The notes under the pieces: model-generated
Told to the model about the DNA's origin: nothing
Seen by the model: the letters and a program-made list of their open reading frames with translations, nothing else
Databases searched by the model: none
Source of the DNA: Nannocystis bainbridge
GTDB taxonomy: Bacteria; Myxococcota_A; Polyangia; Nannocystales; Nannocystaceae
Direction of reading: 5' to 3'
NCBI RefSeq assembly: GCF_028368995.1
Contig: NZ_JAQNDL010000002.1
Span: 1,937,776 to 2,001,775, forward strand
Length of the DNA stretch: 64,000 bases
Program-made: the position numbers and the translations under genes
Part shown: positions 2,633-63,280 of the stretch, in pieces
Position numbering within the stretch: position 1 is the first letter of the stretch
Layout: the number at the start of each line of letters is the position of its first letter

Positions 2633-2700
2633 TGGCATGTCCCGAAAGACATGTCACTGCGCGCGCGGTCTGGTCTGACCTGTCCTTTCGCGCATGTCTC
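2633..2700. repeat. 14-bp-phased CATG dyads
   Basis: Cores at 2636/2650 and 2679(CCTG)/2693, between convergent genes. Confidence 0.75.
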
Positions 2701-2745
2701 CTCGCGCTCCTGCGAGCGCGACGCGCGGGGGCTGAGCGGCGCGCT

Positions 2746-3666
2746 CTACTTTCGCCCTTTGACCCCGGGATCGTCCCCCAGCGGCCCCGAGCGGACCTCG
2801 ACCGGCCCGATCCCCGCGCCTTCCAGCACCGTCCCCGGCGCCGCCGCGCTGCGGTGCACGATCGCCAGCCCGCTCGCCCCCCCGCTCGGGTCGGGCGCCC
2901 AGGTGTCCGCGCGCCCGGCCTGCGGGCGCTCGGGCGCCGCCAGCTCCACCGGTCCTTCCGGACATGTCCCGGCGTGCACCCGCACCAGCACCCGGTTGAC
3001 CTGCCCGCGCGCGTGGATGCGCGCCAGCGGCTCCTGACCCATGAAGCAGCCCTTGTCGTAGCTCACCGCCGCGACGAAGCCGACTTCGGGCGGGAACGTC
3101 CCCGCCGTGATCTCCCGGCCCCACGCCGGCGCCGCCGCCTCGATGCGCCGCGCGTCCCACGTGGTCGAGTTCGCCTCGGTCGCGTTCGCCAGCGCCGCCG
3201 CGACCGCCGCCGGCGCGCCGAACACCAGCCAGCCCGGGCCCGGGTAGAGCGTCTCCAGACACTCGATGCCGGCGCCCGCGATCGGCTCCGGCCAGATCAT
3301 TGCGAACTCGACATCATCGGCGCGCTCGAGCGCGACGTCGTCCATGATGATGTGGCGATCCAGCAGCGCGATCGCCTCGTCGGCGGCCTCCGCCGGCAGC
3401 GCCAGGTGCAGCGCACCATCGGCGCACGCCAGCACGATCGCCTCGGTGACCAGCTTGCCCTTCACCGTCAAGATCGCGGCCGGCAGCGCGTAACCCGGGC
3501 GAGCCGCCTCGACGTCGGCCGACAGGATCCCCTGGAGGAAGCGGCGCACATCGGATCCCGACAGGCGTAGCAAAATGCGACGCCCGTGCGGCAGCGCGGC
3601 GAGGCGGACATATGTCAGGCCCTGCGGGCCCGCGGACGACTGGAGCGGAGTCACGGCGGAAACCAT
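2746..3666 (-). CDS. ygfZ: YgfZ/GcvT-family folate-binding Fe-S cluster repair protein
   Basis: LSGSDVRRFLQGILSADV and the signature SYDKGCFMGQEPLAR. Confidence 0.88.
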   Translation of the reverse strand: MVSAVTPLQSSAGPQGLTYVRLAALPHGRRILLRLSGSDVRRFLQGILSADVEAARPGYALPAAILTVKGKLVTEAIVLACADGALHLALPAEAADEAIALLDRHIIMDDVALERADDVEFAMIWPEPIAGAGIECLETLYPGPGWLVFGAPAAVAAALANATEANSTTWDARRIEAAAPAWGREITAGTFPPEVGFVAAVSYDKGCFMGQEPLARIHARGQVNRVLVRVHAGTCPEGPVELAAPERPQAGRADTWAPDPSGGASGLAIVHRSAAAPGTVLEGAGIGPVEVRSGPLGDDPGVKGRK

Positions 3667-3773
3667 GGCAATTCACCCCCGTCCCGCGCAAGCGCGAGCA
3701 CACCGCGGCGAACGCACCCCGCGTTCGCGCCGTGCCCCTTGATCGCCCCGTGGCCCCCCTTTAAAAGAGTCCC

Positions 3774-5540
3774 GTGCCGCGGCCGAGCGCAGCAGGGTTT
3801 TTACGCACGCTTGTGAGCGTCCTCGTCGCGCTGGCGGTCGCGCAGCCCGTCGCCGCCGCTCCTCCCCCTGCTGCGCGCACGCCCGCTGCCCTGGCGCCCG
3901 CGCCTGTCCCTTCGACCACGTCCCAACAGACAGGTGCGAAGGGCCAGCCAGAGTCGGAGCCTGCCTCTTCGGCCATGTCCCCAAGGACAGAGCCGAAGAG
4001 CCCGCCGCCGCCCTCGCCCGAGCAGCCGTTCAACCTCCCGGTCGCCGTGCGCACCGACGCCTACGGCCCGCGCCCGTCCGGCCTGCCCGAGCTGACGCGC
4101 GAGCAGATCGTCGCCTACGGCCTGCAGAACCCGCTGGTGAAGGCCGCCGACGCGCAGATCGAGCAGATGGAGGCCACGCTCCAGCGGGCCAAGTTCTCGT
4201 GGGTCCCGGTCATCAGGACCACCACCGCGCTCGCGCCCGGCGTCTACACCCGCTGCGAAGACGTCCAGCTACAGACGACCGGCGGCGCCGACCCGGTTGA
4301 CTTCCAGTACTGCCGCCCGGCCGGCCGAAACGGCGCCTCCGACATCGTCGACGTCGACACCATCAGCGGCTACTTCCGCCAGCTCAAGGAAGCGGGCATC
4401 GCTGTCCGCTTCGGCGCCGACTTCATCATCCCGGTGTTCACCTCCGGCAAGATCAAGCACGGCAAGGAGATGGCGGCCGCCGGCGTCGCCCTGGCCCGGC
4501 TCGCCAAGGAGCGCGCGCGTCAAGAGACGGTCCTCCGCGTGTATCAGGCCCACACCGCGCTGCTGCTCGCGCGCGAGAGCCTCGCCATCCTCGACGAGGC
4601 GTGGAAGGTCGTGCAGGAGGCCAAGGGGCAGATCCTCGTCGACCTCGGCGAGGACGAGGACGCCGATCCCGACGAGAGCAACCCCGACCGCGACCCCGCC
4701 GACCTGCCGCGCGTCGAGCTCGGCGAGCTGACCCTGATGGAGCGCGCGCTCGAGGCCCGCAAGATCGAGTCGGTCGCGCTCGCCACGCTGTGGACGATCG
4801 CCGGCGAGGCCGCGCCGGTCGGCTTCGACATCGCCGAGCGCTCGCTCGTCACCGACGGCGTCGACGGCGGCCTGCGCGAGCTGCCGCATTACCGCGATCT
4901 CGGCGCGCAGCAGCGGCCCGAGGCGAAGATGGCCGCCGGCCTGGTCGAGCTGCGCAAGGCCGGCGAAAAGTTCGCGCGCTCGCAGTTCTTGCCGGACTTC
5001 GGCGTCGCGGTGTCGGTTCAGATCTCGTACATGAACCAGGCCGACCGCGACATGAAGGCGCTCTACTACTTCGACCGGTACAACTACAACCGCGTCATCT
5101 TCGCCTTCGCGATGAACTGGAACCTCGACTTCCACAACAGCTACTTCGGCCTCAAGAAGGCGCGCGCCGAGCGACGTGAGGCAGAGCACCAGCGGGAGGC
5201 CGCGCGCTACCTGCTCGCGCTCGAGGTCGAGAAGGCCTACCGCGACCTGCAGCACGCCGGTCGATCGGTCAAACTGACCGAGCAAGCCACCCGCAAGGCC
5301 AAGCAACTGGTCGTCGACCAGCAGGTCAAGCAGACCGTCGGCGGCGGCAACTTCGTCGAGCTCGAGCGGGCCTTGACCCGCTGGGCCGAGTGGCGCTTCA
5401 AGCAATTCGAGGCCATTCACGCCCACAACGTCGCCCTCGCGGCCCTCTCGCGCGCGGTCGGCTCCTCCCTGGGGGTCGCCCCCAAGGCTACGGCGGCCGC
5501 CGCGCCCCCGAACGCCATTTCCGTGACCTCAAGCCCTTGA
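3774..5540 (+). CDS. TolC-family outer membrane efflux protein (start uncertain)
   Basis: Signal-like N-terminus, Pro-rich linker, two OEP-like helical repeats (QNPLVKAA, QQRPEAK, SQFLPDF, ALAALSRAVG). Confidence 0.82.
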   Translation: MPRPSAAGFLRTLVSVLVALAVAQPVAAAPPPAARTPAALAPAPVPSTTSQQTGAKGQPESEPASSAMSPRTEPKSPPPPSPEQPFNLPVAVRTDAYGPRPSGLPELTREQIVAYGLQNPLVKAADAQIEQMEATLQRAKFSWVPVIRTTTALAPGVYTRCEDVQLQTTGGADPVDFQYCRPAGRNGASDIVDVDTISGYFRQLKEAGIAVRFGADFIIPVFTSGKIKHGKEMAAAGVALARLAKERARQETVLRVYQAHTALLLARESLAILDEAWKVVQEAKGQILVDLGEDEDADPDESNPDRDPADLPRVELGELTLMERALEARKIESVALATLWTIAGEAAPVGFDIAERSLVTDGVDGGLRELPHYRDLGAQQRPEAKMAAGLVELRKAGEKFARSQFLPDFGVAVSVQISYMNQADRDMKALYYFDRYNYNRVIFAFAMNWNLDFHNSYFGLKKARAERREAEHQREAARYLLALEVEKAYRDLQHAGRSVKLTEQATRKAKQLVVDQQVKQTVGGGNFVELERALTRWAEWRFKQFEAIHAHNVALAALSRAVGSSLGVAPKATAAAAPPNAISVTSSP

Positions 5541-9607: not shown

Positions 9608-9795
9608 GGACATGTCCCGCGGGCCATGTCTCCTGCGCCACGGCTCATCCCCGGCTCGCAGCGCCGCCCTCGACGCGGGCAGCCGGGGTAGCGCTACGCT
9701 GACGCCTGCCCACCAGGACATGCCACAAAGGACATGTCCATGACGACATGTCCTCGAGCGCATGCCCACAAGCGCATGCCGCAAAGGACATGTCC
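9608..9795. repeat. 14-bp-phased CATG array (2 + 6 units)
   Basis: CATG at 9611, 9625; and 9719, 9733, 9747, 9761, 9775, 9789. Confidence 0.95.
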
Positions 9796-14058: not shown

Positions 14059-14125
14059 GGACATGTCCTTACGGGCATGTCCGACAGGGCATGCCCCTGA
14101 GGACATGCCCGTTCGAGCATGTCCT
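14059..14125. repeat. 14-bp-phased CATG array (5 units)
   Basis: CATG at 14062, 14076, 14090, 14104, 14118. Confidence 0.95.
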
Positions 14126-14291
14126 CCAGGACACCATGCACACGGCCGCCGGCGAGCTGCCCGTGCTCGCCGCTGCCGCGCGACGCGTGCCCGCGATGAC
14201 CGTCCGAAGGGACATGTCGACTCGACCACGCCCTTCCAGCGAGTCCCGAAGGCCGCTCCCGACGCGCGGTCCGTGCCCGCGCGCCCCGTCG

Positions 14292-16210: not shown

Positions 16211-16290
16211 GTCCATGGTCTTCGGACCATGCCCTTTGAGACATGTTTATAAAAACATGCGCAACAGGACATGCTCGTTCAGACATGTCC
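16211..16290. repeat. 14-bp-phased CATG array (6 units)
   Basis: CATG at 16214, 16228, 16242, 16256, 16270, 16284. Confidence 0.95.
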
Positions 16291-17900: not shown

Positions 17901-17966
17901 AGACATGTCCCCGCAGACATGCCCTTACGGACATGCCCCCGAGGACATGCCCCCGAGGACCTGTCC
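17901..17966. repeat. 14-bp-phased CATG array (5 units)
   Basis: CATG at 17904, 17918, 17932, 17946; CCTG at 17960. Confidence 0.92.
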
Positions 17967-17982: not shown

Positions 17983-19176
17983 TCACATCGGCGGCACGAA
18001 CTCGTCGCACGTCTGCGCGATCAGGCCGACCGCCTCGGAGAAGAACGAGTCGTAGCTGGGCGCGCACACGCTGCCGGAGATGCCCTGATCGCCGAAAGAG
18101 TTGACGAACTCGCGGATGCGCGGGCTCGGCTCGGCGCCGGAGCTGTCGACCAGCGGCCCGCAGATGCTGTTGGGCTGGTCGTTGTCGCCGTACAGGCCGA
18201 GGACCACCAGCGCCTTCTCGTCGCCCTTCTTGGCGGCCACCAGCGACGCCTTCCAGCCGGCCGGGTTGCCGGCCGAGCCGTCGCCGAAGTTGTCGTCCTC
18301 GTCGGTGACGATGGTGACGACCAGGATCGCGTCCTGGCGCAGGAACCCGTTGTTGCACTGGAACGCCGGGCCGCTCGGCGCGACCGCCTGGACCATCGCC
18401 TCCATCGGCCGCTCCGGGTCGGAAGTCGAGCCGGTGCCGACCTGGGCCGCGCAGGCGAACGTCGAAGTCAGGTCGGGCTCGCTCACGTCCATGTAGCGGA
18501 AGCCGGTCGAGAAGTTGCAGTCCTTCGAGCTCGACTGCAGGCCGCGCGGATGGGTCACGCCGGCCCCCAGCACGTCCTCGCATTCGAGCGGCGGCGTGCC
18601 GCAGGTGTAATCGAGGCCGGCCACCGGGCAGGTGTTGCCGAACAGCGGGCAGATCAGGTTGCAGCCGCCGAACACCCACGGGTCGGTGTCGATCACCATG
18701 ATGTGATAGTCCTGGGCCTCGTCGAGCTGATCCTGGATCGACGAGATGAAGCCGGGGAAGCTGTCGATCAGCGACTGTTGCTCGTCGCTCATCGACCCCG
18801 AATTGTCGATGATGAACAGGAAATCGACCTTGCGACAGCCCATCTCGTCGCCGTCGGTCGTCACCCCGTCGGTGGTCTCCTCGACCCCGACATCGAGCTT
18901 GGGGGACCCGCCCGTGCTGGTCGGATCGCTCGTCCCGGTGGTCGTCGGGGCCGACGTCTCGCTGTCGCTGTTGCTCTCGCTGCCGCTGGCCTCCGACGTG
19001 GCCTCGGTGCCCGACTGCGACGAACCGGTGGTGCTCGTCGTGTTCGTACTATTGGTGGTCGGCGCCGTCGTCACGCCGGTGGTCGCGTTGCTGTTCGATG
19101 TCTCGACGTCGTCACCGCATGCGGAGAGGATCGAGAGCGTGGCGAGAAGGGTGCAGGTACGACGAAATCGGGTCAT
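17983..19176 (-). CDS. Lipoprotein with vWA-like domain
   Basis: Lipobox LSAC; Thr/Ser-rich linker; MIDAS VDFLFIIDNSGSM; FLRQDAILVVTIVTDEDD. Confidence 0.87.
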   Translation of the reverse strand: MTRFRRTCTLLATLSILSACGDDVETSNSNATTGVTTAPTTNSTNTTSTTGSSQSGTEATSEASGSESNSDSETSAPTTTGTSDPTSTGGSPKLDVGVEETTDGVTTDGDEMGCRKVDFLFIIDNSGSMSDEQQSLIDSFPGFISSIQDQLDEAQDYHIMVIDTDPWVFGGCNLICPLFGNTCPVAGLDYTCGTPPLECEDVLGAGVTHPRGLQSSSKDCNFSTGFRYMDVSEPDLTSTFACAAQVGTGSTSDPERPMEAMVQAVAPSGPAFQCNNGFLRQDAILVVTIVTDEDDNFGDGSAGNPAGWKASLVAAKKGDEKALVVLGLYGDNDQPNSICGPLVDSSGAEPSPRIREFVNSFGDQGISGSVCAPSYDSFFSEAVGLIAQTCDEFVPPM

Positions 19177-23074: not shown

Positions 23075-23180
23075 GATCCTGTCCATTCGGGCATGCCCGC
23101 GCGGACATGCCCTTTCGGACATGGTCTTGAAAACCTGTCCCTTCGAGCATCCTTCGACCATCTGTCCCTTCGGCCATCCT
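23075..23180. repeat. 14-bp-phased CATG/CCTG array
   Basis: Cores at 23078(CCTG), 23092, 23106, 23120, 23134(CCTG), 23148(CATC). Confidence 0.85.
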
Positions 23181-29048: not shown

Positions 29049-29261
29049 ATGTCCAAGAAGTTGATCGATCTGCAAAGCGAAGGGGCCGACGTGCCCTTCT
29101 TCGCCCATCTCCTCAGCAGCCAGGCCGACCCGGCCACGCCCGCGGCCGGCGGCGGCGGCGGCACCAAGCCGGCGCCCACCTATCATTGCCTCGACTCCGA
29201 ATGCACCAAGAAGTATCCGAGCGACGGTGACGAGCCGACCAGCACGCTCTGGGACAAGTGA
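29049..29261 (+). CDS. Microviridin-type graspetide precursor peptide
   Basis: Leader VPFFAHLL (cf. PFFARFL), poly-Gly, core TKKYPSDGDE (TxKYPSD); GAGG RBS; adjacent to two ATP-grasp ligases. Confidence 0.93.
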   Translation: MSKKLIDLQSEGADVPFFAHLLSSQADPATPAAGGGGGTKPAPTYHCLDSECTKKYPSDGDEPTSTLWDK

Positions 29262-29290
29262 TCGCCGACCCGCGGACGGCCAGGTGAAGC

Positions 29291-31269: not shown

Positions 31270-31276
31270 CGCCGCG

Positions 31277-33085: not shown

Positions 33086-33147
33086 ACTGCCCGCCGCGCG
33101 CGCCTGCAAGCGCCCGCATCGGCGACCTCCGCGGGCGCGTCGATGTT

Positions 33148-34845: not shown

Positions 34846-35216
34846 ACCCGCGCGCGACCTCAATTCGCGCCCGCGCCTCACATGTCCGGAGAGACATATC
34901 ATCACAGTACGCCGCCTCGTCCGCCCCCGGGCGAGCGCGGCCTGTCCTCGGCCGTGCCGCGCCGACCTGTCCCCGAGGACATGCCCATGCCCCGCGGCCG
35001 GTCGCGCTCCCTCGCGCGGATCGTCGCGCCCCGGTCCTCCGCACCGGAAGGCCGCGGCCAGGGCTCATCCCGCGGAAGTGTCCGTACGCCCCCGATCCGG
35101 GCCCGCCCCGACCCATATCACCCGACCAGCGGAGGCCGGCATGTCCGCCCCGGCCCCCAACATCCCACGCATGGTTCCACGCTTTCGCCGGAGCGCGCCG
35201 CGGGTACACTCGGCCG

Positions 35217-38312: not shown

Positions 38313-38364
38313 TCGGCTGTCCCTCGGGACATGTGATTCGCGACATGTCCCTCTAGACATGTCT
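38313..38364. repeat. 14-bp-phased CATG array (3-4 units)
   Basis: GCTG 38316; CATG 38330, 38344, 38358. Confidence 0.88.
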
Positions 38365-40095: not shown

Positions 40096-40196
40096 TCACA
40101 TGTCTAATGGGACATGCTCTGAGAGACATATTTCATTCGACATGTCCATCAGACCATTCGTGACATCGAACCGACGGCATGTCCCTCGAGACAGAC
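40096..40196. repeat. 14-bp-phased CATG array
   Basis: Cores 40099, 40113, 40127(CATA), 40141, 40155(CATT); second register 40164/40178/40192. Confidence 0.88.
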
Positions 40197-41584: not shown

Positions 41585-41745
41585 TGACCTGTCCTCTCGG
41601 ACATCTCGATTCATTGTCCCAAAGAACATGTCCCTCGAGACATCCATGACCCGGGCTCGGCGCCGCGGCGCCTCGACGACCCATGGACTTCCAAAGCCTC
41701 ACCCCACCCCGCCGAGATCCGCGGCACCTGTCCTCGAGGACATCC
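41585..41745. repeat. Degenerate 14-bp-phased dyads
   Basis: Cores 41588/41602; 41613/41627/41641; 41727/41741. Confidence 0.65.
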
Positions 41746-41848
41746 CGCCCAGCGCCGCGACCGCCGCGCCGCGCTCCGTGAATTGACGCCCACTTGACTG
41801 GTCGACTGCGAGCGGCCCTGCATCTTCCATACGTAGGGAGACGTACGA

Positions 41849-42100
41849 ATGCAGCGCGAAGGATGGTCGACGTGGATCCTGGCGAGCGCGACGCTCGCAG
41901 GTGGTTGTTGTCCTGGCGACCCTCCGTCGGACGACGGACGGATCCGCCACTGGCTCGCGGCCGGCGAGCAACCGGACGAATCGGACGGCGTCCCGTGCAG
42001 CGGCGACGACGAGCGCCGCGCCGGCTGGCGTGACGACGGCGACGACGAGCCCGAGGTCGTCGACGACCCGTCCTGCGACGGCTTCGAGCGCGCCGAATGA
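41849..42100 (+). CDS. Possible small acidic lipoprotein
   Basis: GGGAG upstream; LAGGC lipobox-like; no recognisable domain. Confidence 0.4.
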   Translation: MQREGWSTWILASATLAGGCCPGDPPSDDGRIRHWLAAGEQPDESDGVPCSGDDERRAGWRDDGDDEPEVVDDPSCDGFERAE

Positions 42101-42224
42101 CGGGCGCACCGCGCGATCGCGGCGCGCCCGCGATCGTCCGGACGCGCTGGATCGCCGCCGCTCGCCCTCTGCCTCGCCGATCACGCCGCGAGTGCGACGC
42201 GCCGGCCTCGCAAGCCGCACCGCC

Positions 42225-43079
<855 letters not shown>

Positions 43080-44089: not shown

Positions 44090-44173
44090 GCCCGCCACGC
44101 AGCGACGCTCATGGACTTCGCCGAGCATCCGGCCCGCCACGCAGCGACGCTCATGGACTTCGCCGAGCACCCG
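44090..44173. repeat. 42-bp tandem duplication right after the LysR stop
   Basis: GCCCGCCACGCAGCGACGCTCATGGACTTCGCCGAGCAYCCG x2, one mismatch. Confidence 0.92.
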
Positions 44174-44306
44174 GCGCCGTCCTCCTGATCGCTCGCTCCG
44201 CGGTGCTCACTGCTTCCGCCGAGCACCCGCTTGCTCGCCCGCTGCGCTGCGACGCTCACGGGCTCCGCGTCGAGCGCTCGACTCGCTCGCCCGCGCTGCG
44301 TGAAGC

Positions 44307-44636
44307 TCACTGGCTCTGCGGCGGGCAGCCGTCGCCGTCGGCCCGCCCGTCGCGGACCTCGGGCACGTCGGGGCACTTGTCGAAGCGGTCGGAGATCCCG
44401 TCGCCGTCGCGGTCGACCACCGGGCAGCCGTCGCGCGGCCCGCCGGCCTGATCAGGGCAGGCATCGACCGCGTCGGGCACACGATCGCCGTCCCGATCGC
44501 TCGGCGTCGTGACCGGCTTCGGGCGCGACACCGGCCCGCTCGTAGCATCGAGCGACACCGGCGGCGCCTGCGTGGCGCCGGACTGGGCGCATCCGAACAG
44601 CAGGACGGGCAACAGGAGACTGGCAGCGCGAGCCAT
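44307..44636 (-). CDS. Small lipoprotein with thrombospondin type-3-like Ca-binding repeats
   Basis: Lipobox LFGC; DRDGDRVPDAVDACP, DRDGDGISDRFDKCP, DGCP. Confidence 0.82.
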   Translation of the reverse strand: MARAASLLLPVLLFGCAQSGATQAPPVSLDATSGPVSRPKPVTTPSDRDGDRVPDAVDACPDQAGGPRDGCPVVDRDGDGISDRFDKCPDVPEVRDGRADGDGCPPQSQ

Positions 44637-44741
44637 GCAGTGCCCAGGGTACCACTCCGCCCGCGAGCACGCGAGCACGGCCGCCCAGCGGCCCCGAGGC
44701 GCGAACGACGGCCCGCGATGCCCGGAACAGCCCCACGGGAT

Positions 44742-45105
44742 CGCAAGCGAGGCCATCCGTCCCGAAATGCCCGCATCGACTCGCAGCGCACATGCCCGCG
44801 CGCGAGGGCCGGCCCGAGGTGCCAGCAACAGTCGCGTCGAAGCCCAGCTCGCACAGGTCGCAAGCACGGCCATCCGTCCAGAGACCCCCGCATCGACCCG
44901 CGGCGCACGCATGCCCGCGCGCGAGGGTCGGCCGATGGGCCAGCAACGGCCGCATCGCTCGCACTGCTCGCCCAGGACCGCAAGCACGGCCATCCGTCCA
45001 GAGCTGCCCGCACGACCCACGGCGTACGCATGCACAGGCGGGTCGGCCCGACGTGTCGACAACGGCCGGCCTCGAGTGCGAGCAACGGCGACGCAAGCAT
45101 CCCCC
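44742..45105. repeat. About 118-bp degenerate tandem repeat, three copies plus a partial one
   Basis: CGCAAGC..GGCCATCCGTCC starts at 44742, 44859, 44979; partial at 45092. Confidence 0.82.
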
Positions 45106-45272: not shown

Positions 45273-45352
45273 GAACATGTCCTTTTAACCATGTCCTTTT
45301 CGACATGCTCATTTCACCATGCCCTCGACGACATGCTCTTCACGACATGTCT
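45273..45352. repeat. 14-bp-phased CATG array (6 units)
   Basis: CATG at 45276, 45290, 45304, 45318, 45332, 45346. Confidence 0.95.
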
Positions 45353-46214: not shown

Positions 46215-46781
46215 CGGCGAGCTCCTCGCCGTCTATGCGATCGTTCGGCCGAAGTTCAAGCGCCCGCGCCGTCACGCTGGCCCACGAACATCGTTTTCAT
46301 GGCCGTTCCACGCCGCCCGCAGCGAAAACACGATCGCCCGCCGAGACCGACGAAGTCCCCCCGCCGCGCGCCGTGAGGCTTCCACGCCACGCGGGGGGAT
46401 CGCCGCGAACATACGTCCGCATGTCTCGCAGGACATGTTCTTCGGACCATCCGAAATCAACGGGTGTCGCCTCGCCGACGCACGCCCGCGAACCGTCGCC
46501 CCCAGCACCCGCGGCCAGCGCGAACCGACCCGCCCGCCGCGCCATGATTCCTTGCGAAGACTCCCGCGAATCTCTCCACTGAGCATCTTCAATCAGCGAA
46601 TGACGTGACCATCGCCCGCCACGAAGACCAGGCATCTACGCGATCCCAATTTCTCCGGATCCGGCGCACCGAGGAGCATGCACACGCGAGGACCCGGCAG
46701 GGCACCGCGGCCCAGGACCGTCTCGGGCAAGACGGTCCTGAGCCGCGCCGACCATGGAGTGGAGCGTCGGGCAACGCTCGT

Positions 46782-50097: not shown

Positions 50098-50098
50098 G

Positions 50099-50175
50099 AG
50101 ACATGTCCCTGAAGGCATGGCCTCGGGGACATGCCTTATTCGACATGTTCCAATGAACATGTCCGAAGGGACAAT
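50099..50175. repeat. 14-bp-phased CATG array (5 units)
   Basis: CATG at 50102, 50116, 50130, 50144, 50158; fills the convergent gap. Confidence 0.95.
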
Positions 50176-51114
50176 CTACACCAGCCGCGCCGCGGCCGCC
50201 CGGATCGCCGCCCGGATCGCGGCCTCGTCGGCCTCGTCGGGCGCCTGCAGGGCCACCGGGAACGCCGCGGTGAGGTCGATGAGCACGTCGAGCTCGACCT
50301 CGTCGAGGATCGCCTGGCGGTCGTCGCGGCCCCACTTCGACGCCGCGCTGGCGATCCGCACCGGGTTCGTCAGCCGCTCCGCCCACGCCACCAGGGCCGC
50401 GCGATCGGGGCGCTGGTTCGGGTCCCAGGCCTCGGCCTCCTGGAACCGCTGCTCGTCGAACTCGGCGATCTTGCGCTTGTAGGTCGGCCGCGTGCCGGGA
50501 CGCGCGCGCGCGTCGGGGCGGACCACCAGCCCCTCGGCGAAGTTGTCGGCCAGCCCCGGCAAGCCCAGCGCGGCCGGCACGCGCGTCGGCGCTCGCGTCG
50601 GCGCCGCCTCGACGTGCGGGCGCGGCCCCGTGCGCACCACCGGCGGCACCATCATCCCTGTCTCTCGGGACAGCTCAGCCAGCTCGCTCCACCCCAGCAG
50701 CTCGCCCTCGTCGTCGTCGCTCGTCGCCACCAGCGCGTCGAAGGCCGCCCAGCGCAGGTCGGGCGCGTACCAGATCCCCGTCTGCACCGGCTGCAGCCCC
50801 GGCACCGCCGCCACCTCCGCGTGCGGATAGCCGCCGCCGAACAGCTCGCCGTAGAACACCACCAGCGGCGCGCCGAGCCGGCCAGCCGCCGCCCGCGCGA
50901 CCTCGCTGAGCCCGGCCCGCACCAGCTGCCAGCCGAAGAACGGATCGCCGTCGGCCAGCCACGCCTTGCGCTTGCCGAAGCGCACCTGCTCGCCCGCGAC
51001 CGCGATCAGCATCTGCGCCCCGTGGATCTTCTCGAGGGCGACCCATGGCCCGCCGGGGACGAGCCCGAGCGACTCGCCGGGCCCCGCGATCTTGCCGTAG
51101 TAGCGGTGACGCAC
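50176..51114 (-). CDS. RNA ligase, Rnl2 family (GTG start 51114 or 51156)
   Basis: Motif I WVALEKIHGAQ; FGKR; YGELFGGGYPH; AFD; AEGLVVRP; YKRK; C-terminal RIASAASKWG. Confidence 0.88.
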   Translation of the reverse strand: MRHRYYGKIAGPGESLGLVPGGPWVALEKIHGAQMLIAVAGEQVRFGKRKAWLADGDPFFGWQLVRAGLSEVARAAAGRLGAPLVVFYGELFGGGYPHAEVAAVPGLQPVQTGIWYAPDLRWAAFDALVATSDDDEGELLGWSELAELSRETGMMVPPVVRTGPRPHVEAAPTRAPTRVPAALGLPGLADNFAEGLVVRPDARARPGTRPTYKRKIAEFDEQRFQEAEAWDPNQRPDRAALVAWAERLTNPVRIASAASKWGRDDRQAILDEVELDVLIDLTAAFPVALQAPDEADEAAIRAAIRAAAARLV

Positions 51115-51291
51115 CGCGCCAGGGTAGCCGAACCGCGCCCCGTCGCGCGCGGCCACCGGCGCGCGCGCCCGCGCTTTCGTCTTTGCATCTCATGTCCCGA
51201 GAGACATGTCCGAAAGCACCGGGCCACTCGCGCGCGCCCGCGGACTCCGCCTCCCGCCGCGCGCCGCTCTGTGGCACTGTCGGCGCCCGCC

Positions 51292-52172: not shown

Positions 52173-53954
52173 TCAGTAGTTGTGAGCCAGGATCCCCCCG
52201 GCGAAGTACGTATCCGGCGCCTCGACCGAGAGCTCCCACACCTCGCTGGTGCCGTCGGCGACGATGCTCTCGATCGGGACCTCGGCGCCGTCGCTTCCGA
52301 GCAGCCGCTCGCCGACCCGCAGCTCCTTCGTGACCCGGAACGCCCCCACGCGCGGCAGCCACAGCGGGTGCTCCGCGGTGACGCGCAGCGCTCGACCGTC
52401 CGCGAGTCGCAGCTGCAACACCGGCTGCTCGCCGCGGGACACCCGGCGCAGCACGTGGGCCACGCGCGCCTCGCCGCTCAGCACGTCGTGCGACAGCACC
52501 CTCGCTCCGGGCGCCAGCGCCTCGATCGCCACCGGCCCGTCGGGCGTCTCGATCGGCGTGCCGGTGGCGAAGCACGTCGCGCCCGAGAGCCCCCAGCGCG
52601 CCGCGCCCGAGACTGGCGTCAGCGTCCCGTCCGCCGCGCTTGCGCAGGCCAGCAACGCGACATCGCTCGAGCAGCCGACCACGCCGCGGAAGCCGGGCTG
52701 CTCGCCGTCGCCGCCGACCTCGAGCGCCAGGGTCAGAGGCAGTTTCGCGGTCGCGGGGTGGCTATGCCAAGCGTCCCACAGCGCCCGCGGCACGTCGGCG
52801 AACACCTGCTGCGGATCGCACGGGAGCGGCACCCGGGCGCCTCGCGGTCCCGGATGGCGCCCTGCGATCAAGCGGATCGACTCGGCGCCGGCCGGCCAGG
52901 TCCGCACCGTCAGCGCCGCGTCCAGCATGCAGTCGTAGCTCTCGCGCGCGGCCACCAGCGCGACCTCGGCGGCGCGCGTCGGATCCTCGTCCGCGGCCAG
53001 CGGCGTGGACTCGCCGGCCGAGGGCTTGCCGTCGCGCACCAGCAGGCGGTCGAGGAAGAACGTGTCCGGCGCGCTGACGTCGGTGATGTCGGAGCCGTAC
53101 GTCTTCTTGCGCTCCGTCACTTCGCGGGCCTCGACCGGCCCCTCGCGACCGAACAGTCGATCGCCCGCGACCACCTCCGACGCGCGCACCCACGCCGCCG
53201 TCTCGACGCGCCACAGCTCGTGGTTCGGCAGCACCACGATCGGCTCGCCCGTCGTCAGCCGGACCTCCAGCACCCGGCTCGACCGTCGCTCTCGCAGCGC
53301 CCGCACCTCGACCCGCACGCGCGCGCCCGTCGTCGGGTCGGCGCCGATCAGCTGCATGCCGCGCTGCGGGGCGACCAGGTCGGCCGTCTCGCCCGAAGGC
53401 GTCAGCAGGCGATGCTCGCCGTACCAGCTCGGATCGGCCGCGACCTCCGTATGCGCCGCGACCGGGCCGCGCGAGGCATGGAGCGCGCCGCTCGAGTCGC
53501 GCATGCACAGCCCGAGCGCGTAGGACTTCCCGCAGGCGATGGCCGGCGGCTCGACGCGCACGCGCAGCCGCGTCGGTCCGCCGGTCGTGTCCGGGGGCGC
53601 GACGGTCAGCGCTTCACGCGGCAGCTCGAGCATCACCGGCCGCGAGCAATCGACCGCAGCGACGGATGCGTTCGCCGACTCCCGGGCCACGACCACCAGC
53701 GACACCAGCGGCGCAGCGAGCTGGACCGCCGGCACGTCGACGTCGAGCGCGCAGTGATCGAAACTACCGACGAGCGACGGGACCACCAGCATCGCCTCGT
53801 CGAGCTCCGGAACCGGTGCCGGAGCCGGCGCTGGTGCCGGCGCCGGCGGCAACGCCTGGGGCCTCGTCTCGGGCCGCGGAGCGGCGGCATCGGGGGCATC
53901 TGGCGTGCAGCCCGCCAGCGAGACGAGGACGGCGGAGACGATCGCGCGGCGCAT
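52173..53954 (-). CDS. Lipoprotein with two Hint (intein-like) domains
   Basis: Lipobox LAGC; C-terminal CFATGTPIETPDG...VTAEHPLW...YFAGGILAHNY*; internal degenerate Hint SWYGEHRLLTPSG...VLPNHELW...TFFLDRLLVRD. Confidence 0.88.
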   Translation of the reverse strand: MRRAIVSAVLVSLAGCTPDAPDAAAPRPETRPQALPPAPAPAPAPAPVPELDEAMLVVPSLVGSFDHCALDVDVPAVQLAAPLVSLVVVARESANASVAAVDCSRPVMLELPREALTVAPPDTTGGPTRLRVRVEPPAIACGKSYALGLCMRDSSGALHASRGPVAAHTEVAADPSWYGEHRLLTPSGETADLVAPQRGMQLIGADPTTGARVRVEVRALRERRSSRVLEVRLTTGEPIVVLPNHELWRVETAAWVRASEVVAGDRLFGREGPVEAREVTERKKTYGSDITDVSAPDTFFLDRLLVRDGKPSAGESTPLAADEDPTRAAEVALVAARESYDCMLDAALTVRTWPAGAESIRLIAGRHPGPRGARVPLPCDPQQVFADVPRALWDAWHSHPATAKLPLTLALEVGGDGEQPGFRGVVGCSSDVALLACASAADGTLTPVSGAARWGLSGATCFATGTPIETPDGPVAIEALAPGARVLSHDVLSGEARVAHVLRRVSRGEQPVLQLRLADGRALRVTAEHPLWLPRVGAFRVTKELRVGERLLGSDGAEVPIESIVADGTSEVWELSVEAPDTYFAGGILAHNY

Positions 53955-54106
53955 GTGCGACCCAATACGAGCTCGACCCCATGTTATTCGCGCGCTCGCG
54001 CCGCCCCGGCCGCGTCGTGCCTCACACCCCCGGCCATCACTCAGGGACATGTCGCTCGGGACATGTCCGATCGTCCCGAGCGCCCGAGGTCGACAGCCCC
54101 CGCCCC

Positions 54107-54667
54107 TCAGTGGACGCGATAGCCCCCGTGCTCCGCAGCGATCTCGTTGTAGCGGGCGAACCCCAGGATCCACTTGCGGCCGTCCTCGCGGGCCACCCCG
54201 GCGTCCGGGAAATAGTCCTGGGCGATCACCTCCACGTGCTCGCGCAGCTTGCGGGCCAGCACCGCGCACTCCTCCGGCGTCACCAGCCAGCCATCGTTCG
54301 ACTGGAACTTGAACGCCCCCACGCGCCCGTCCTTCAGCGATGACGACTCCACCGCCGCCTCGTGCGCCTGCAGGTACGCGCGCGCGGCCGCCAGCTCCGC
54401 CTCTGTCGGCGCCGGCCCCTCTGCCGCCTCGCCGCGCAGCGCCGCAAACGCCGCGAGCACCCGCTCCTCGTCGAGCTCGCCCAGCTCGAGCTCCGGGATC
54501 GGGGCCGCCTCCCCGTAGTGGATCGCGTCGGCCCACTCGAGCGCGCCCACGGTCGTCGCCATGCCCCGCACGTTGAAGCGGTAGTACCCCGCGACCCCGC
54601 TCGAGTTCGGCAGCTCGTCCTCGTCCACCGTCGGGGGGGTGCGCACCATCTGCAGGTCGTAGCCCAT
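54107..54667 (-). CDS. Hypothetical protein
   Basis: Coding-like composition; MGYD start, KFQSNDGWLVTPEEC, HGGYRV end. Confidence 0.8.
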   Translation of the reverse strand: MGYDLQMVRTPPTVDEDELPNSSGVAGYYRFNVRGMATTVGALEWADAIHYGEAAPIPELELGELDEERVLAAFAALRGEAAEGPAPTEAELAAARAYLQAHEAAVESSSLKDGRVGAFKFQSNDGWLVTPEECAVLARKLREHVEVIAQDYFPDAGVAREDGRKWILGFARYNEIAAEHGGYRVH

Positions 54668-54757: not shown

Positions 54758-56200
54758 GTGCCGCCCTCCGCACGTTATCGGCCGGATCCCCGGTACCTCG
54801 CGCTCGGCGACGGCTTCGCCGACGTCGTCGCCCCCGCGCGCTTCCCCAGCCATGTCCTGCGGCACCGCGACGAGCGCTGGGCCGCGCGGGTCGGCCTCGA
54901 CAGCCTCGGCGACGACGAATGGGAGCGGCACTTCGCCCGCTTCGAGCCGCTGCCCGGCAACCTGCCCGACCCGCTCGCCCTGCGCTACCACGGCCATCAA
55001 TTCGGCAGCTACAACCCCGCGCTCGGCGACGGCCGCGGCTTCTTGTTCGCCCAGCTGCGCGACGGCTTCGACGGTCGCCTGCTCGACCTCGGCACCAAGG
55101 GCAGCGGCGCCACCCCGTACGCCCGCGGCGGCGACGGCCGCCTCACCCTCAAGGGCGGCGTGCGCGAGATCCTCGCCGCCGAGCTGCTCGCGGCCCGCGG
55201 CGTCGACACCTGCAAGATCCTCAGCGTGTTCGAGACCGGCGAGCGGCTCATCCGCGGCGACGAGCCCTCGCCCACGCGCTCGTGCGTGCTCGTGCGGCTC
55301 AGCCACTCCAACCTGCGGTTCGGCACCTTCCAGCGCCACGCTTACCACCGCGACCTCGCCCGCCTCGGCGCCCTGGTCGACTACGCCGTCGAGCACCACT
55401 TCCCGGCCGCGCGCCGCGACGACCTCGCCGTCACCACCGCCGCGCTGGTCCGTCTCGTCGCCTGTCGCGCCGCCGCCACCGCCGCCGCCTGGACCGTCGC
55501 CGGCTTCGTGCACGGCGTCCTCAACACCGACAACCTCAACCTCACCGGCGAGAGCTTCGACTACGGCCCCTGGCGCTTCCTGCCGACCTACGACCTCGGC
55601 TTCACCGCCGCCTACTTCGACGAGACCGGCTTCTACGCCTTCGGTCGCCAGCCCAACGCCGTGCTGTGGAACCTCGGGCGCCTGGCCGAGGCCGTACTCC
55701 CGCTGACCACGCGAGATGTCCTCGAGGACAGCCTCGGCGCGTTCGAGCCCGCCTTCCACGCCGCCGTGCGCCGCGCCTTCCTCGACCGCCTCGGCCTCGC
55801 CCCGCGCGGCGACGCGGCCGACGACGGCGTCATGGACGCCTGCTACGCCTTCCTCGCCGCGCGCCGCCTCGACCTCGACCGCTTCTACTTCGACTGGTAC
55901 GGCGGCGAGGCCAGCGCCGCCCGGGCCCTCGCCGGCCCGGCCGCCGCCCACTACGACCACCCCGAGTTCATGGAGGTGCGCCGCGCCTGGACCGCGCACG
56001 CCCCCGCCGCCCCCGAGCGCCTCGGCCACCCGTACTACGGCGGCGCCGCCCCGTGCTCGCTGCTCATCGACGAGGTCGAGGCGCTGTGGGCCGCGATCGC
56101 CGACCGCGACGACTGGGCCCCGCTGGCTGCCAAGCTGGCGGCGATCCGCGAGTTCGCCACCCTCCACGGCCGCGACCCGTCGGTGATGGACATGCCCTGA
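54758..56200 (+). CDS. selO: Protein adenylyltransferase SelO/YdiU
   Basis: YHGHQFG..NPALGDGRG, KGSGATPYARGGDGR, GFVHGVLNTDN, DYGP. Confidence 0.95.
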   Translation: MPPSARYRPDPRYLALGDGFADVVAPARFPSHVLRHRDERWAARVGLDSLGDDEWERHFARFEPLPGNLPDPLALRYHGHQFGSYNPALGDGRGFLFAQLRDGFDGRLLDLGTKGSGATPYARGGDGRLTLKGGVREILAAELLAARGVDTCKILSVFETGERLIRGDEPSPTRSCVLVRLSHSNLRFGTFQRHAYHRDLARLGALVDYAVEHHFPAARRDDLAVTTAALVRLVACRAAATAAAWTVAGFVHGVLNTDNLNLTGESFDYGPWRFLPTYDLGFTAAYFDETGFYAFGRQPNAVLWNLGRLAEAVLPLTTRDVLEDSLGAFEPAFHAAVRRAFLDRLGLAPRGDAADDGVMDACYAFLAARRLDLDRFYFDWYGGEASAARALAGPAAAHYDHPEFMEVRRAWTAHAPAAPERLGHPYYGGAAPCSLLIDEVEALWAAIADRDDWAPLAAKLAAIREFATLHGRDPSVMDMP

Positions 56201-56253
56201 AGGCCATGTCCCAAGCGACATTTCTCAAAGGGCATGTCGCTTGCGACATGTCC
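56188..56253. repeat. 14-bp-phased CATG array (5 units) overlapping the selO stop
   Basis: Cores 56191, 56205, 56219(CATT), 56233, 56247. Confidence 0.92.
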
Positions 56254-56997: not shown

Positions 56998-57369
56998 ATG
57001 ATCGGCTACGTCAGTCTCGGTACCAAGGACATGCAGCGGGCCTCCGCCTTTTACGACGCGCTCCTCGCGGAGCTCGGCGCCCAGCGCACGCTGAACTTCG
57101 ACCGCTTCGTCATTTGGGGCAAGAGCCCGAGCGAGGCCGCCCTCGCCGTGTGCACCCCGTACGACGGCAACCGCGCCACCGTCGGCAACGGCGTGATGGT
57201 GGCCCTCGCCTGCGCCGACCGGGCGGAGGTCGACCGCCTGTATGCGCGCGCCCTCGCTCTCGGCGCCACCGACGAGGGCGCCCCCGGCGAGCGCGGGCCC
57301 GGCTTCTACGCCGCCTACTTCCGCGACCTCGACGGCAACAAGCTCAACTTTTTCAAGATCGACGGATAG
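56998..57369 (+). CDS. VOC/glyoxalase family protein
   Basis: MIGYVSLGTKD..RASAFYD, GNGVMVAL, GATDEGAPGER, YFRDLDGNKL. Confidence 0.95.
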   Translation: MIGYVSLGTKDMQRASAFYDALLAELGAQRTLNFDRFVIWGKSPSEAALAVCTPYDGNRATVGNGVMVALACADRAEVDRLYARALALGATDEGAPGERGPGFYAAYFRDLDGNKLNFFKIDG

Positions 57370-57420: not shown

Positions 57421-57560
57421 AACACAGGCCGAGGGGACATGCCCCCTCGGCCTGCTCGAATTGACCGCCCCGGCCGCCCGCATCGCATGTCTCCCACGAC
57501 ATGCCCTCAAGAGCATGTCCCGAACACCATGCCCGTAAGAGCATGTCCCCGGCGACAGCT
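57421..57560. repeat. 14-bp-phased CATG array
   Basis: 57424/57438 dyad; CATG 57486, 57500, 57514, 57528, 57542. Confidence 0.93.
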
Positions 57561-57569
57561 CGTGATGCC

Positions 57570-59172: not shown

Positions 59173-59727
59173 ATGCCCGCCAGCGGGGTCCTCTTCGACG
59201 CACTCGGGTCTCCGGCCGAGCTGCTCACCGTCGCCGACGTGTACCGCACGCACGCCGATTTCGTGTGGCGCGTGGTCCAGCGCCTGGGCGTGCCCGCGGC
59301 CGAGGCCGAGGACGTCGTCCACGAGGTCTTCATGGTCGTCCAGCGCCGGCTCGGCGAGTTCGACGGCCGCGGCGCCATCACCAGCTGGCTTTACGCGATC
59401 GGCCGCGGCGTCGCGGCCAACTACCGCCGTGGCCACGCCCGCGCCGCCCGCCGCATCGATCACCTCGATCCCCCGCTGCCGCCGCGCTCGCCCGAGGAGG
59501 ACGCCGCCCACCGCGAGGCCGCCGGCGTCATCGAGACCTTCCTCGGTCAGCTCGACGGCGAGACCCGCGAGATCTTCGAGCTCGCCGACATCGAGGGCAT
59601 GAACTGCCCCGAGGTCGCCCGCGCCCTCGAGCTCGACCTGAACCGCGTGCTCGCCCGACTCAAGACCGCCCGCCGCCGCTTCAACGCCTTCGTCGCCCAG
59701 CGCAGCGCCACCACGAGGACCCCATGA
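59173..59727 (+). CDS. ECF RNA polymerase sigma factor
   Basis: AEDVVHEVF, SWLYAIG (region 2); REIFELADIEGMNCPEVARAL (region 4). Confidence 0.93.
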   Translation: MPASGVLFDALGSPAELLTVADVYRTHADFVWRVVQRLGVPAAEAEDVVHEVFMVVQRRLGEFDGRGAITSWLYAIGRGVAANYRRGHARAARRIDHLDPPLPPRSPEEDAAHREAAGVIETFLGQLDGETREIFELADIEGMNCPEVARALELDLNRVLARLKTARRRFNAFVAQRSATTRTP

Positions 59728-60497
59728 CCGAACCCCGCGACGACCTCCCGGCCCTCGATCCCCGCGCCGCCGACCTGCTGGCGACCTACCGCCGCGCCCG
59801 CGCCATGCCGCCGGCCGCCCGCGCCCGGGTCCGCGACCAGCTCGTAGGGACAGGTCCCGAAGGACATGTCCTTCCGCTCAGGCCACGCCGCCGCCACGAC
59901 GCCGCCTGGGCCGCCGCCCTCGCGCTGGCCGCCGTCGCCATCCTGTGGCTGGCGCGCCGCGACTCACACCTGTCCGAACAGACGGGTGCGTCCGCGACCA
60001 TGAGCCCGGCCCACGGCGCTGCCGACCCCGCCGTCAACGACGCCGCCCTTCTCACGCCGCCGCCGGCCGCCCCGCAGCCCGGGCTCGTGCCTGCCGTCGC
60101 CCCGGCGCCGACCGACGTCGTGCGACCCCGGTCCAGGCCCGCCGCCGATCGCCGCGACGCCGCGAGCCCCTCCGTCTCGGCCGATGGCCCTGACGATCAC
60201 CGCGACGCGCACGACACCGCGCCCGCCACCGATCTGCGCGGCGAGCAGGCCCTGCTCGCGCGCGGCTGGCAGGCGCTCGCCGGCGGCGACCCCGGGTCCG
60301 CCGCGCGCGACGCCGACGAGCACGCGCGCCGCTACCCCGCTGGCGCGCTCGCTCCGGAGCGGCGCGCGCTCGCGGCCGCTGCGAGCTGCGCCGACGACCC
60401 CGCCGCTGGCGCCGAGCTCGCTCGCGCATTCCTCGCGGACCACCCGCGGAGCCCGCTGGCCCGGCGCGTGCGCGACGCCTGCGACCTCGCCCCGTGA
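59724..60497 (+). CDS. Putative anti-sigma factor with TM and C-terminal TPR-like helix pair
   Basis: ATGA overlap with the sigma gene; one TM; LRGEQALL...HARRYPAGALAPER...FLADHPRSP. Confidence 0.8.
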   Translation: MTEPRDDLPALDPRAADLLATYRRARAMPPAARARVRDQLVGTGPEGHVLPLRPRRRHDAAWAAALALAAVAILWLARRDSHLSEQTGASATMSPAHGAADPAVNDAALLTPPPAAPQPGLVPAVAPAPTDVVRPRSRPAADRRDAASPSVSADGPDDHRDAHDTAPATDLRGEQALLARGWQALAGGDPGSAARDADEHARRYPAGALAPERRALAAAASCADDPAAGAELARAFLADHPRSPLARRVRDACDLAP

Positions 60498-61573: not shown

Positions 61574-61770
61574 GCCGCCCGCGCGGCTGAAGCCTCGAGG
61601 CACCTGGTCTTTCGACCAGGTGCCTCTTGACGTTTGCAAGTGAGCCGCCCGCGCGGCTGAAGCACCGAGGCACCTGGGCTTTCGACCAGATGCCTCCTGA
61701 TGTGTGCAAGTGAGCCGCCCGCGCGGCTGAAGCCTCGAGACACCTGGTCTTTCGACCAGGTGCCTCTTCG
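61562..61770. repeat. 70-bp tandem triplication including the gene's stop codon and a hairpin
   Basis: Units at 61562, 61632, 61702; hairpin GAGGCACCTGGTC-TTTC-GACCAGGTGCCTC. Confidence 0.95.
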
Positions 61771-62102: not shown

Positions 62103-62264
62103 CGCGACCCCACCGCCGACCAGCGCTGACCGGGCCCGCCAAGACGAGCCCCCGGCTCGGTCTCGAACGGTAGAGACGGCTCACCCCCTTCTCCCCGCCT
62201 GCCACCACGTTCCGCGCCCCGATCCGCGATCGGCGGCCGCGCCGCTGGTCAGCCCCGGCAATTT

Positions 62265-63164
62265 TTGGCACTCCTGCAGCCGGTGCTGCTCGTCCCCGCG
62301 CTCCTGGCCGTCCTCGTGGCCGCGCCGATCGAAGTCGGCACCTCTCTCGTCGACGCCACCCGGCTCGCGGCCGGCTTGCGCGCGCGCGTCGGCCCGGAGC
62401 TCGACGACTGGACCATCACCGTCGGCCCGGCCGACGGCGCCGACGCCCTGCGCGTCACCCTCGCGCGGGGCGACGGCCGCGCCGCCAGCCACACCGTCCG
62501 CCTCGCCGGCAAGACCGTCGAGGATCGCACCCGCGAGCTCGCCGCCAGCATCACCCTGTTGATGGACAGCCACCCGGCCGATCTGACCCCCGCGGCGCCC
62601 GCGTCCCCCGCTCGGCCGGCCCCTCAGCGCTCGCCGCCGCTGCCCCGGCCGCCCGACGCGCCCGCCTCGCGCCCCCCGCGGCCTGCCCTGCGCGGCTGGC
62701 TCGGCCTCGGCCCGCGCATCGAGGTCGGCAGCGGCCTGCGCTACGAGGCCGGCCTCGACCTCCTCGGCGGCTTGTGGCTCGCGCGCGAGCACGTCCAGCC
62801 GCTCATCGGCCTCGGCTTCAGCGGCGGCGCCCGCCACGGGATCTCCGTGCTCCACGCCCGCTTCGGCGCCGGCGCGGCCTTTGGCGCCCCGCTCGGCCCC
62901 GGAGGCCGGCTCTGGCTCGGCGCCCACCTCCTCGGCCACGCCCTGTACCTCCACGCCGTCGAGGTCGGGACCGACGCCACCTGGCTGTCCTCGACCGAGA
63001 TCGGCGGCCTCCTGCAGTACCGCGGCCGCCGCCTGTTCCTCGGCCTGCGCACCGGCCTCGACCTCACCTTGCCCGCCGTGTCGATCCGCGGCACCCGCGG
63101 GGTCGTGCGCCGCGAGGTCCCGCGCTGGTGCTTCGGCCTCATGTTCGGCGTGAAGTTCGGCTGA
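62265..63164 (+). CDS. Secreted protein with Pro-rich linker and C-terminal beta-barrel-like strands
   Basis: Signal-like N-terminus; architecture like 58092-59132; ends FGLMFGVKFG. Confidence 0.75.
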   Translation: MALLQPVLLVPALLAVLVAAPIEVGTSLVDATRLAAGLRARVGPELDDWTITVGPADGADALRVTLARGDGRAASHTVRLAGKTVEDRTRELAASITLLMDSHPADLTPAAPASPARPAPQRSPPLPRPPDAPASRPPRPALRGWLGLGPRIEVGSGLRYEAGLDLLGGLWLAREHVQPLIGLGFSGGARHGISVLHARFGAGAAFGAPLGPGGRLWLGAHLLGHALYLHAVEVGTDATWLSSTEIGGLLQYRGRRLFLGLRTGLDLTLPAVSIRGTRGVVRREVPRWCFGLMFGVKFG

Positions 63165-63187
63165 TCGGCGCCGCCGCAGCTCTCAGG

Positions 63188-63280
63188 TCGCATGCCCCGG
63201 GGACATGCCCTCTCGAGCATGTGCAAAAAGACATGTCCACTCTAACATGTCCATCCAGACATGCCCCTTCAAACATGTCT
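63188..63280. repeat. 14-bp-phased CATG array (7 units)
   Basis: CATG at 63191, 63204, 63218, 63232, 63246, 63260, 63274 (first step is 13 bp). Confidence 0.95.

Follow-up and report, generated by a model that had tools for sequence, protein, structure and literature searches.

We analysed a 64,000-nucleotide stretch of the Nannocystis bainbridge genome (contig NZ_JAQNDL010000002.1, positions 1,937,776 to 2,001,775 of the forward strand; hereafter the window), in which short palindromes centred on the tetranucleotide CATG recur in tandem arrays next to gene ends. The window has a G+C content of 72% and a gene content in keeping with a myxobacterium. It contains 261 CATG, compared with 156 expected from base composition, and about 190 of these lie outside the arrays. 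Pairs of CATG occurred 47 times at a lag of 14 bp, and 32, 23, 13, and 5 times at lags of 28, 42, 56, and 70 bp, respectively. Lags of 13 and 15 bp were represented by one pair each, so that 47 of the 49 pairs over lags 13–15 fell on 14 bp. When the window was simulated 100 times with a first-order Markov model, the number of lag-14 pairs had a mean of 0.46 and a maximum of 3, which bears out the strict 14-bp period reported in a first-pass annotation made from the sequence alone. The exact decamer GGACATGTCC was present in eight copies, compared with 0.07 in the simulations. The CATG arrays are a real, conserved, and abundant class of repeat at transcription-unit ends in Nannocystis, and the type is apparently undescribed so far.

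The catalogue comprises 21 array sites in 64 kb, or approximately one site per 3 kb. All 12 long arrays named in the first-pass annotation were recovered where it had placed them and with the CATG counts it had given, and five of its six pairs were exact; the sixth, at 34881, proved to be a CATG followed by a CATA. Three degenerate sites (2679–2693, 41588–41641, and 59851–59865) were added by a symmetrised position-weight scan. Between convergent genes, six-unit arrays lie at 9716–9795, at 16211–16290 (approximately 11 bp past a tetR-like stop codon at 16200), and at 63201–63280, in the gap 63165–63303, where an additional CATG stands at 63191 with a lag of 13. Five-unit arrays are found at 14059–14124, approximately 9 bp past the stop at 14050 and accompanied by a lone unit at 14213, and at 50099–50164, where the array takes up most of the 78-bp convergent gap 50098–50175. 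Another convergent gap holds both a two-unit array 23 bp past the stop at 2610 (2633–2656) and a degenerate CCTG + CATG pair at 2676–2699, the phase of which differs from that of the first. Three CATG units and one CATA unit at 40096–40147 also occupy a convergent gap, 14 bp past the stop at 40082, with a lone unit at 40178.

At tandem junctions, four CATG units and one CCTG unit (17901–17966) lie approximately 17 bp past the stop codon of the minus-strand gene 17983–19176, and a CCTG unit, three CATG units, and a second CCTG unit (23075–23140) begin approximately 4 bp past the stop of an ABC ATPase gene at 23071. The three-unit array at 38327–38364, with a degenerate GCTG unit at 38316, also stands at a tandem junction, just past the stop at 38310, and the two-unit array at 46417–46440 lies in a tandem minus-strand gap where its relation to the gene ends is ambiguous. 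The context of the two-unit site at 51188–51211, 35 bp upstream of the start of a minus-strand RNA-ligase gene, is ambiguous as well. Two-unit arrays were further found at 9608–9631, beginning 12 bp past a dsbD-like stop at 9596, and at 54045–54068, approximately 39 bp past the stop codon of the minus-strand gene 54107–54667. The CATG + CATA pair mentioned above (34878–34901) is 33 bp past the stop at 34845, the six-unit array at 45273–45352 comes approximately 32 bp after a minus-strand ankyrin gene (stop at 45384), and the five-unit array at 57483–57548 is 114 bp past the stop at 57369. In the array of four CATG units and one CATT unit at 56188–56253, the first unit overlaps the final codons of selO (DMP*); this array is conserved in N. 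pusilla.

A decayed five-unit array (41585–41650) was detected downstream of the minus-strand open reading frame (ORF) 41699–42268. Its cores read CCTG, CATC, CATT (after a 1-nt shift), CATG, and CATC, which indicates that arrays are able to erode. The two-unit CAGG + CATG site at 59848–59871 lies within an anti-sigma-like ORF (59724–60497) directly downstream of an extracytoplasmic function (ECF) sigma gene. It has the sequence GGACAGGTCC cgaa GGACATGTCC and is made of codons with low third-position G+C (GC3) that are rare in this genome. An origin by insertion was ruled out, as the peptide GT.P..HVLP was found in 12 of 12 aligned Nannocystis homologues; the site may be an internal attenuator, or it may have arisen by chance. 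Exact single copies of GGACATGTCC also occur in coding regions at 2960 and 23463.

The 68 in-phase units of 17 arrays yield the consensus aaRGA-CATG-TCYtt, which is palindromic over all 14 bp, and units abut with no further spacer between them. Base counts on the left flank were G35 and A15 at position −3, G48 and A13 at −2, and A46 and G14 at −1; on the right flank they were T42 and C23 at +1, C55 and T10 at +2, and C51 and T11 at +3. Further out, in the spacer, A prevails on the left side and T on the right, a symmetric preference that is expected of a two-fold symmetric site. The spacers are 4 nt long throughout the arrays and have an A+T content of 58% (119/204), set against a G+C content of 73% in non-array intergenic DNA (11,136 bases). 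The 14-bp profile is symmetric, and the sites are contiguous at a fixed period. In-phase departures from the core were single-base variants (CATA, CATT, CCTG, or CAGG), never another palindromic tetranucleotide; they include CATA at 40127, CATT at 56219, and CCTG at 17960, 23078, and 23134. Five-unit arrays make up 4 of the 17 exact-phase arrays and are as frequent as six-unit arrays. Over the six flank positions, neighbouring units shared 3.20 identities and units of different arrays 3.18, so that neighbours are no more alike than unrelated units; the view that flanks vary from unit to unit and that the arrays are not a product of simple slippage was therefore upheld. A 28-bp sub-periodicity was present in a few arrays, with Tandem Repeats Finder (TRF) reporting a period of 28 at 45284–45338.

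We then examined where the arrays stand relative to genes. On a heuristic gene map of the window, arrays were present at all nine convergent junctions, at 9 of 30 tandem junctions, and at none of the eight divergent ones, which confirms the placement at gene 3′ ends and between convergent genes proposed at first pass. For so complete a separation of nine convergent from eight divergent junctions, a one-sided Fisher test gives a probability of 1 in 24,310. All nine array-bearing tandem junctions have gaps of at least 152 bp, and in seven of the nine the array lies 2–112 bp past the stop of the upstream gene, the ambiguous cases being those at 46420 and 51191. An array usually starts 2–60 bp past a stop codon, and the arrays found in other Nannocystis genomes (see below) adjoin a stop codon in six of six cases. 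The premise that convergent gaps must hold transcript 3′ ends also underlies a published approach (PMC13613805).

Hairpins followed by a T-run were not enriched in the whole window (11 sites, compared with a summed shuffle mean of 12.3), and only 1 of the 11 (50173–50160) overlaps an array, in agreement with the earlier remark that classical hairpin and U-tract terminators are lacking at the arrays. Perfect 9–11-bp hairpins without a T-run were observed directly past stop codons at 46713–46740, 61597–61626, 61741–61762, and 57425–57454, where an array is absent or far away. A partial second copy of the hairpin at 61597 follows 144 bp further on, and the 30-bp hairpin at 57425–57454 precedes the array at 57483 and carries one CATG unit at its centre.

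To find arrays elsewhere, a genome scan was run with a query of seven exact CATG at 14-bp spacing, a design that places shorter arrays outside its reach. The scan gave at least 118 loci. Among the matches listed, 112 were ordinary satellites with a 7- or 14-bp period, whose units were 0.60–1.00 identical outside the core, and six were variable-unit arrays with the same consensus as in the window, with a non-core identity of 0.31–0.47. All six belong to Nannocystis: four to Nannocystis sp. RBIL2, one to N. pusilla, and one to N. radixulma, which are three further species. CATG arrays, as examined in the window and in six short loci from other Nannocystis genomes, are thus present in at least four Nannocystis species. 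None of the six loci is orthologous to an array in the window. The longest array among the matches listed, with 13 in-phase CATG, was found in Nannocystis sp. RBIL2 (locus L115, 301–478); its end is approximately 20 bp away from the stop codon of a gene on the minus strand.

Two orthologous comparisons were available. The RBIL2 locus L019 and the N. pusilla locus L043 are orthologous and have seven units each. Their 98-bp arrays are identical at 74 of 98 positions with no gaps, compared with 206 of 391 and 52 gap columns in the left intergenic flank, and a 55-column indel separates array and gene. None of the 28 core positions differed, compared with 9 of 42 in the flanks and 15 of 28 in the spacers. 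The second comparison concerns the array at 56191. The SelO protein of the window is 88–89% identical to N. pusilla proteins and ends in DMP* within the first unit (56186–56200), and one N. pusilla SelO likewise ends in DMP*. In another SelO of N. pusilla, a record of 510 aa, the C-terminal tail is shifted in frame and translates through that gene's own array. This tail, TCPERHVRWGIALRTCRIGHVPTF, matches the translation of the window in the same frame, TCPEGHVPSDISQRACRLRHVPTF, which implies the same five in-phase units in N. pusilla, the degenerate third unit included. Core, phase, and unit number are kept in both comparisons, and the arrays are neither an assembly artefact nor an unstable repeat. 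The sequence comparisons indicate that these three properties are under purifying selection. Slippage, or a variable-number tandem repeat, was rejected, as units are dissimilar (non-core identity 0.31–0.47 in the six Nannocystis loci) and unit number is stable in orthologues (7/7 and 5/5).

We next considered whether the arrays are recognised as DNA or act as RNA. In 24 folds (12 arrays, both strands), predicted minimum free energies ranged from −15 to −53 kcal/mol, with z scores from −1.7 to −8.6. Such strong predicted folds are an automatic outcome of a self-complementary consensus. Folding requires at least two units, the palindrome being 10 bp in a 14-bp period. Minus-strand folds were usually more stable than plus-strand folds, an asymmetry that is uninformative about the transcribed strand, since the plus strand is C-rich throughout.

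Covariation was analysed in 109 units from 22 arrays, comprising those of the window and loci L019, L077, L083, L112, and L115; L043 was excluded as the orthologue of L019. Whether pairing was taken as within-unit, neighbour-inner, neighbour-outer, or mirror-nested, Watson–Crick fractions equalled the shuffled values. At −1/+1, the fraction was 0.42 observed and 0.42 shuffled. The combinations at these positions (A/T 29, A/C 16, G/T 9, and G/C 4) were in line with independence (mutual information p = 0.81), and the 16 A/C mismatches beside the core compare with approximately 15.6 expected from the margins. Stable tetraloops of the GNRA or UNCG type were found in only 3 of 51 spacers (plus strand). 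The suggestion that neighbouring palindromes pair with each other was accordingly not borne out, as there was no Watson–Crick excess within units, between neighbours, or between mirror units.

That the arrays work at the RNA level is nevertheless a serious alternative, if a rather unlikely one. Units would pair as neighbouring or nested hairpins and serve as a terminator independent of a U-tract, as a block to 3′-exonucleases that stabilises the upstream mRNA, or as both. The strength of the predicted folds, the location of the arrays at 3′ ends and in every convergent gap, and the simple hairpins that stand, with no T-run, at some 3′ ends free of arrays are all consistent with this possibility. 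A precedent is provided by E. coli REP325, a repetitive extragenic palindromic (REP) element that a preprint reports as a partial terminator and mRNA stabiliser (bioRxiv 10.64898/2026.03.23.713779). Against it, no compensatory variation appeared in three pairing models, and A/C mismatches occurred at chance level. The core is kept as a sequence rather than as a pair, and all spacers have 4 nt, although hairpin linkers need no set length; in a hairpin model half of the spacers would be unconstrained linkers, and their uniform length favours a protein. Rare tetraloops and common odd unit numbers also speak against RNA hairpins. Judged on sequence evidence, the absence of covariation, the single-base core variants, the 4-nt spacers, the rarity of tetraloops, and the frequency of five-unit arrays are better fitted by a symmetric protein that recognises double-stranded DNA and makes rigid contacts with its neighbours than by selected RNA helices.

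We therefore lean, tentatively and at something close to an even call, towards the view that the arrays are phased operator-like sites for a putative dimeric DNA-binding protein that bounds transcription units. This view builds on the arrays themselves, their strict phase, the order of conservation between species (core > flank > spacer), their placement at 3′ ends, and the lack of base-pair covariation; to these it adds protein binding, cooperativity, and termination or insulation, which we infer. Each 14-bp palindrome would be a double-stranded DNA site for a dimer of a sequence-specific protein. The fixed 14-bp register would rotate successive sites by approximately 120 degrees, so that three units would make four helical turns and dimers could polymerise as a helical coat. 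Such a coat would be 28–98 bp long, and up to 182 bp on the 13-unit array. Placed behind stop codons and at every convergent junction, coats could delimit transcription units irrespective of orientation, either halting RNA polymerase that arrives from one side or the other (roadblock termination) or insulating against it. Of the three mechanisms offered at first pass, with no preference among them, cooperative protein sites or a roadblock best fit the lack of covariation, the invariant CATG, and the 14-bp phase, and in that proposal it is the binding that is conjectural.

Several points weigh against an operator-like boundary. The predicted RNA folding of the arrays is very stable, and the plain hairpins at array-free 3′ ends (46713–46740 and 61597–61626) fit a hairpin-based function at gene ends. 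Outer pairing between neighbours at −2/+2 reached 0.62, compared with 0.53 (p = 0.021, uncorrected, the lowest of approximately 25 tests). As the R3/Y3 flanks pair in about three-quarters of combinations when G–U pairs are counted, weak selection for pairing could escape a test of 109 units. The gene map was built from GC3 and checked with Pfam, and is a heuristic rather than an annotation. The taxonomic range rests on at least 118 scan loci, which limits inference on other genera. Finally, we know of no general protein-roadblock terminator in bacteria.

A DNA-level protein site could instead have a topological or nucleoid role, for example in recruiting gyrase or a nucleoid protein where positive supercoils gather between convergent genes. 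In E. coli, a topological role has been proposed for gyrase at BIME-2, one of the bacterial interspersed mosaic elements (BIMEs). Such a role would draw on the same DNA-site evidence as an operator-like boundary and on the occupation of all nine convergent gaps, but we consider it improbable, as arrays hug one stop codon (2–40 bp) rather than the gap centre and also stand at nine tandem junctions. The 14-bp period is, moreover, unlike the ~10.5 bp that we would expect of surface-wrapped DNA.

Quite improbable, in our estimation, is a selfish or neutral repeat similar to REP elements or miniature inverted-repeat transposable elements (MITEs), which would spread, be tolerated only in promoter-free 3′ regions, and have no function of its own. 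The arrays are indeed intergenic, 3′-biased, abundant, and confined to one genus among the matches listed; one copy, at 41585–41650, has decayed and carries an indel, and a few arrays show the 28-bp sub-periodicity. However, copies are unlike each other (non-core identity 0.31–0.47), with neighbours no more alike than unrelated units, and in orthologues the arrays retain their unit number, their phase, and all intact CATG, whereas the sequence on either side can no longer be aligned. All nine convergent gaps are occupied, and 0 of 47 ORFs in the window match a transposase family in Pfam at E ≤ 1e−5. It is very improbable that the arrays are phased sites for a DNA methyltransferase specific for CATG, with a methylation-sensitive protein as reader: the invariant 4-bp palindrome agrees with this, CATG (NlaIII) and RCATGY (NspI) being known restriction and methylation targets, but conservation reaches a palindrome of 10–14 bp and its spacing, most CATG lie outside arrays (~190/261) with no depletion of the tetranucleotide, and no methyltransferase family was found among the 47 window ORFs.

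Among known kinds of element, we place the CATG arrays with the dispersed extragenic palindromic arrays, and consider the chance substantial that they act in a new way. REP elements and BIMEs of enterobacteria and pseudomonads resemble them in being abundant extragenic palindromes that are arrayed at 3′ ends, often between convergent genes, and roles in termination, mRNA stabilisation, and topology have been proposed for REP elements (bioRxiv 10.64898/2026.03.23.713779). The REP/BIME unit is, however, an imperfect palindrome of approximately 20–40 nt with its own stem-loop, whereas the CATG unit has 10–14 bp and cannot fold alone. The REP hallmark, a GTAG or CGTC tetranucleotide at one end (PMC3733652), is not present in the position counts of the 68 units. 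CATG units all face one way at a strict 14-bp period, while REP/BIME units alternate, and CATG copies share only a consensus, short of the similarity between REP copies. No match to RAYT, the Y1 transposase associated with REP elements, was found among the 47 window ORFs (Pfam, E ≤ 1e−5). The REP/BIME-like reading put forward at first pass thus holds for location and fails for unit size, self-folding, the GTAG/CGTC tag, and copy similarity.

A similar geometry is found in the arrays bound by MetJ, omega, ParR, and TubR. MetJ metboxes are 8-bp tandem palindromes, and omega heptads, ParR–parC, and TubR–tubC are contiguous tandem sites in 2 to ~10 copies; in each case the bound dimers polymerise as a helix round the DNA. 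Like the CATG arrays, they consist of contiguous short sites at a fixed period that does not amount to whole helical turns. They stand at promoters or plasmid centromeres, one or a few per replicon, whereas CATG arrays stand past stop codons and at none of eight divergent junctions. Eukaryotic roadblock terminators are known in the Sal-box arrays with TTF-I or Reb1 downstream of rRNA genes and in mTERF1 in mitochondria. These too have repeated sites just downstream of a transcription unit, and mTERF1 works in either orientation, but they belong to the eukaryotic domain, to a different polymerase, and to single loci, whereas CATG arrays, where binding is presumed, are at nearly every operon end. 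Intrinsic terminators, including the U-tract-less hairpins of high-G+C bacteria, share with the arrays a position past stop codons and strong predicted RNA structure. The arrays differ from them in having no T-run and no compensatory evolution, and a fixed core and period are not features of terminators.

Searches of databases and literature agreed with the first-pass statement that no element of this form has been described. Rfam gave no match at gathering score and three at E ≤ 1, none of which overlaps an array, and a 111-bp array query had no match in plasmids and phages at E ≤ 0.01. No bacterial description of CATG arrays was found in the accessible parts of the open literature, subscription journals not being covered, and word searches of the RepRanger paper and of a Microbiome 2026 paper found no mention of Myxococcota or Nannocystis. 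A CRISPR assignment was rejected, as the units have 10 bp and the spacers 4 bp; CRISPR repeats have 23–50 bp, with unique spacers of similar length. The consensus GGACATGTCC is letter for letter the decamer of p53 binding studies (PMC2275157, with 35 occurrences), the half-site of the p53 response element being RRRCATGYYY. The likeness between p53 half-site and CATG unit is one of sequence only. To our knowledge, no p53-family domain occurs in bacteria.

How high-G+C bacteria without canonical hairpin and U-tract terminators end transcription is an open question, and one recognisable, conserved signal at every convergent junction in 64 kb makes it directly testable in one genus. It is conceivable, though we think it doubtful, that Nannocystis ends most of its transcription units not with RNA hairpins or Rho alone but with thousands of phased operator arrays, on which a dedicated, abundant protein coat would form bidirectional roadblocks. 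If true, this would be a genome-wide, protein-based form of termination and insulation without bacterial precedent, to which only TTF-I/Sal-box or mTERF would be comparable. Should a protein coat the arrays, they would represent a new class of bacterial boundary element with a new abundant chromosome-binding protein, and would offer a compact bidirectional terminator part for the engineering of myxobacterial natural products. If they act as RNA, they would form an unusual REP-like family in which sequence rather than pairing is conserved.

Several other features of the window were noted. In every 4-kb bin the GC skew is below zero (−0.07 to −0.17) despite genes on both strands, and the window probably sits on one replichore. 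A graspetide (microviridin-like) cluster at 29049–34059 consists of a 70-aa ORF, two MvdD-type ATP-grasp genes, and an ABC transporter. Long non-coding gaps also hold larger tandem repeats, with periods of 72, 48, and 41 bp at 1194–1392 and of 119, 51, and 42 bp at 44090–45100, the latter region standing between a LysR gene and the array at 45276. The protein encoded at 52173–53954 carries a PT-HINT (pretoxin Hint) domain at its C-terminus, and a gene of the RNA-ligase family lies separately at 50176–51156; together they may represent a polymorphic-toxin or defence-related context.

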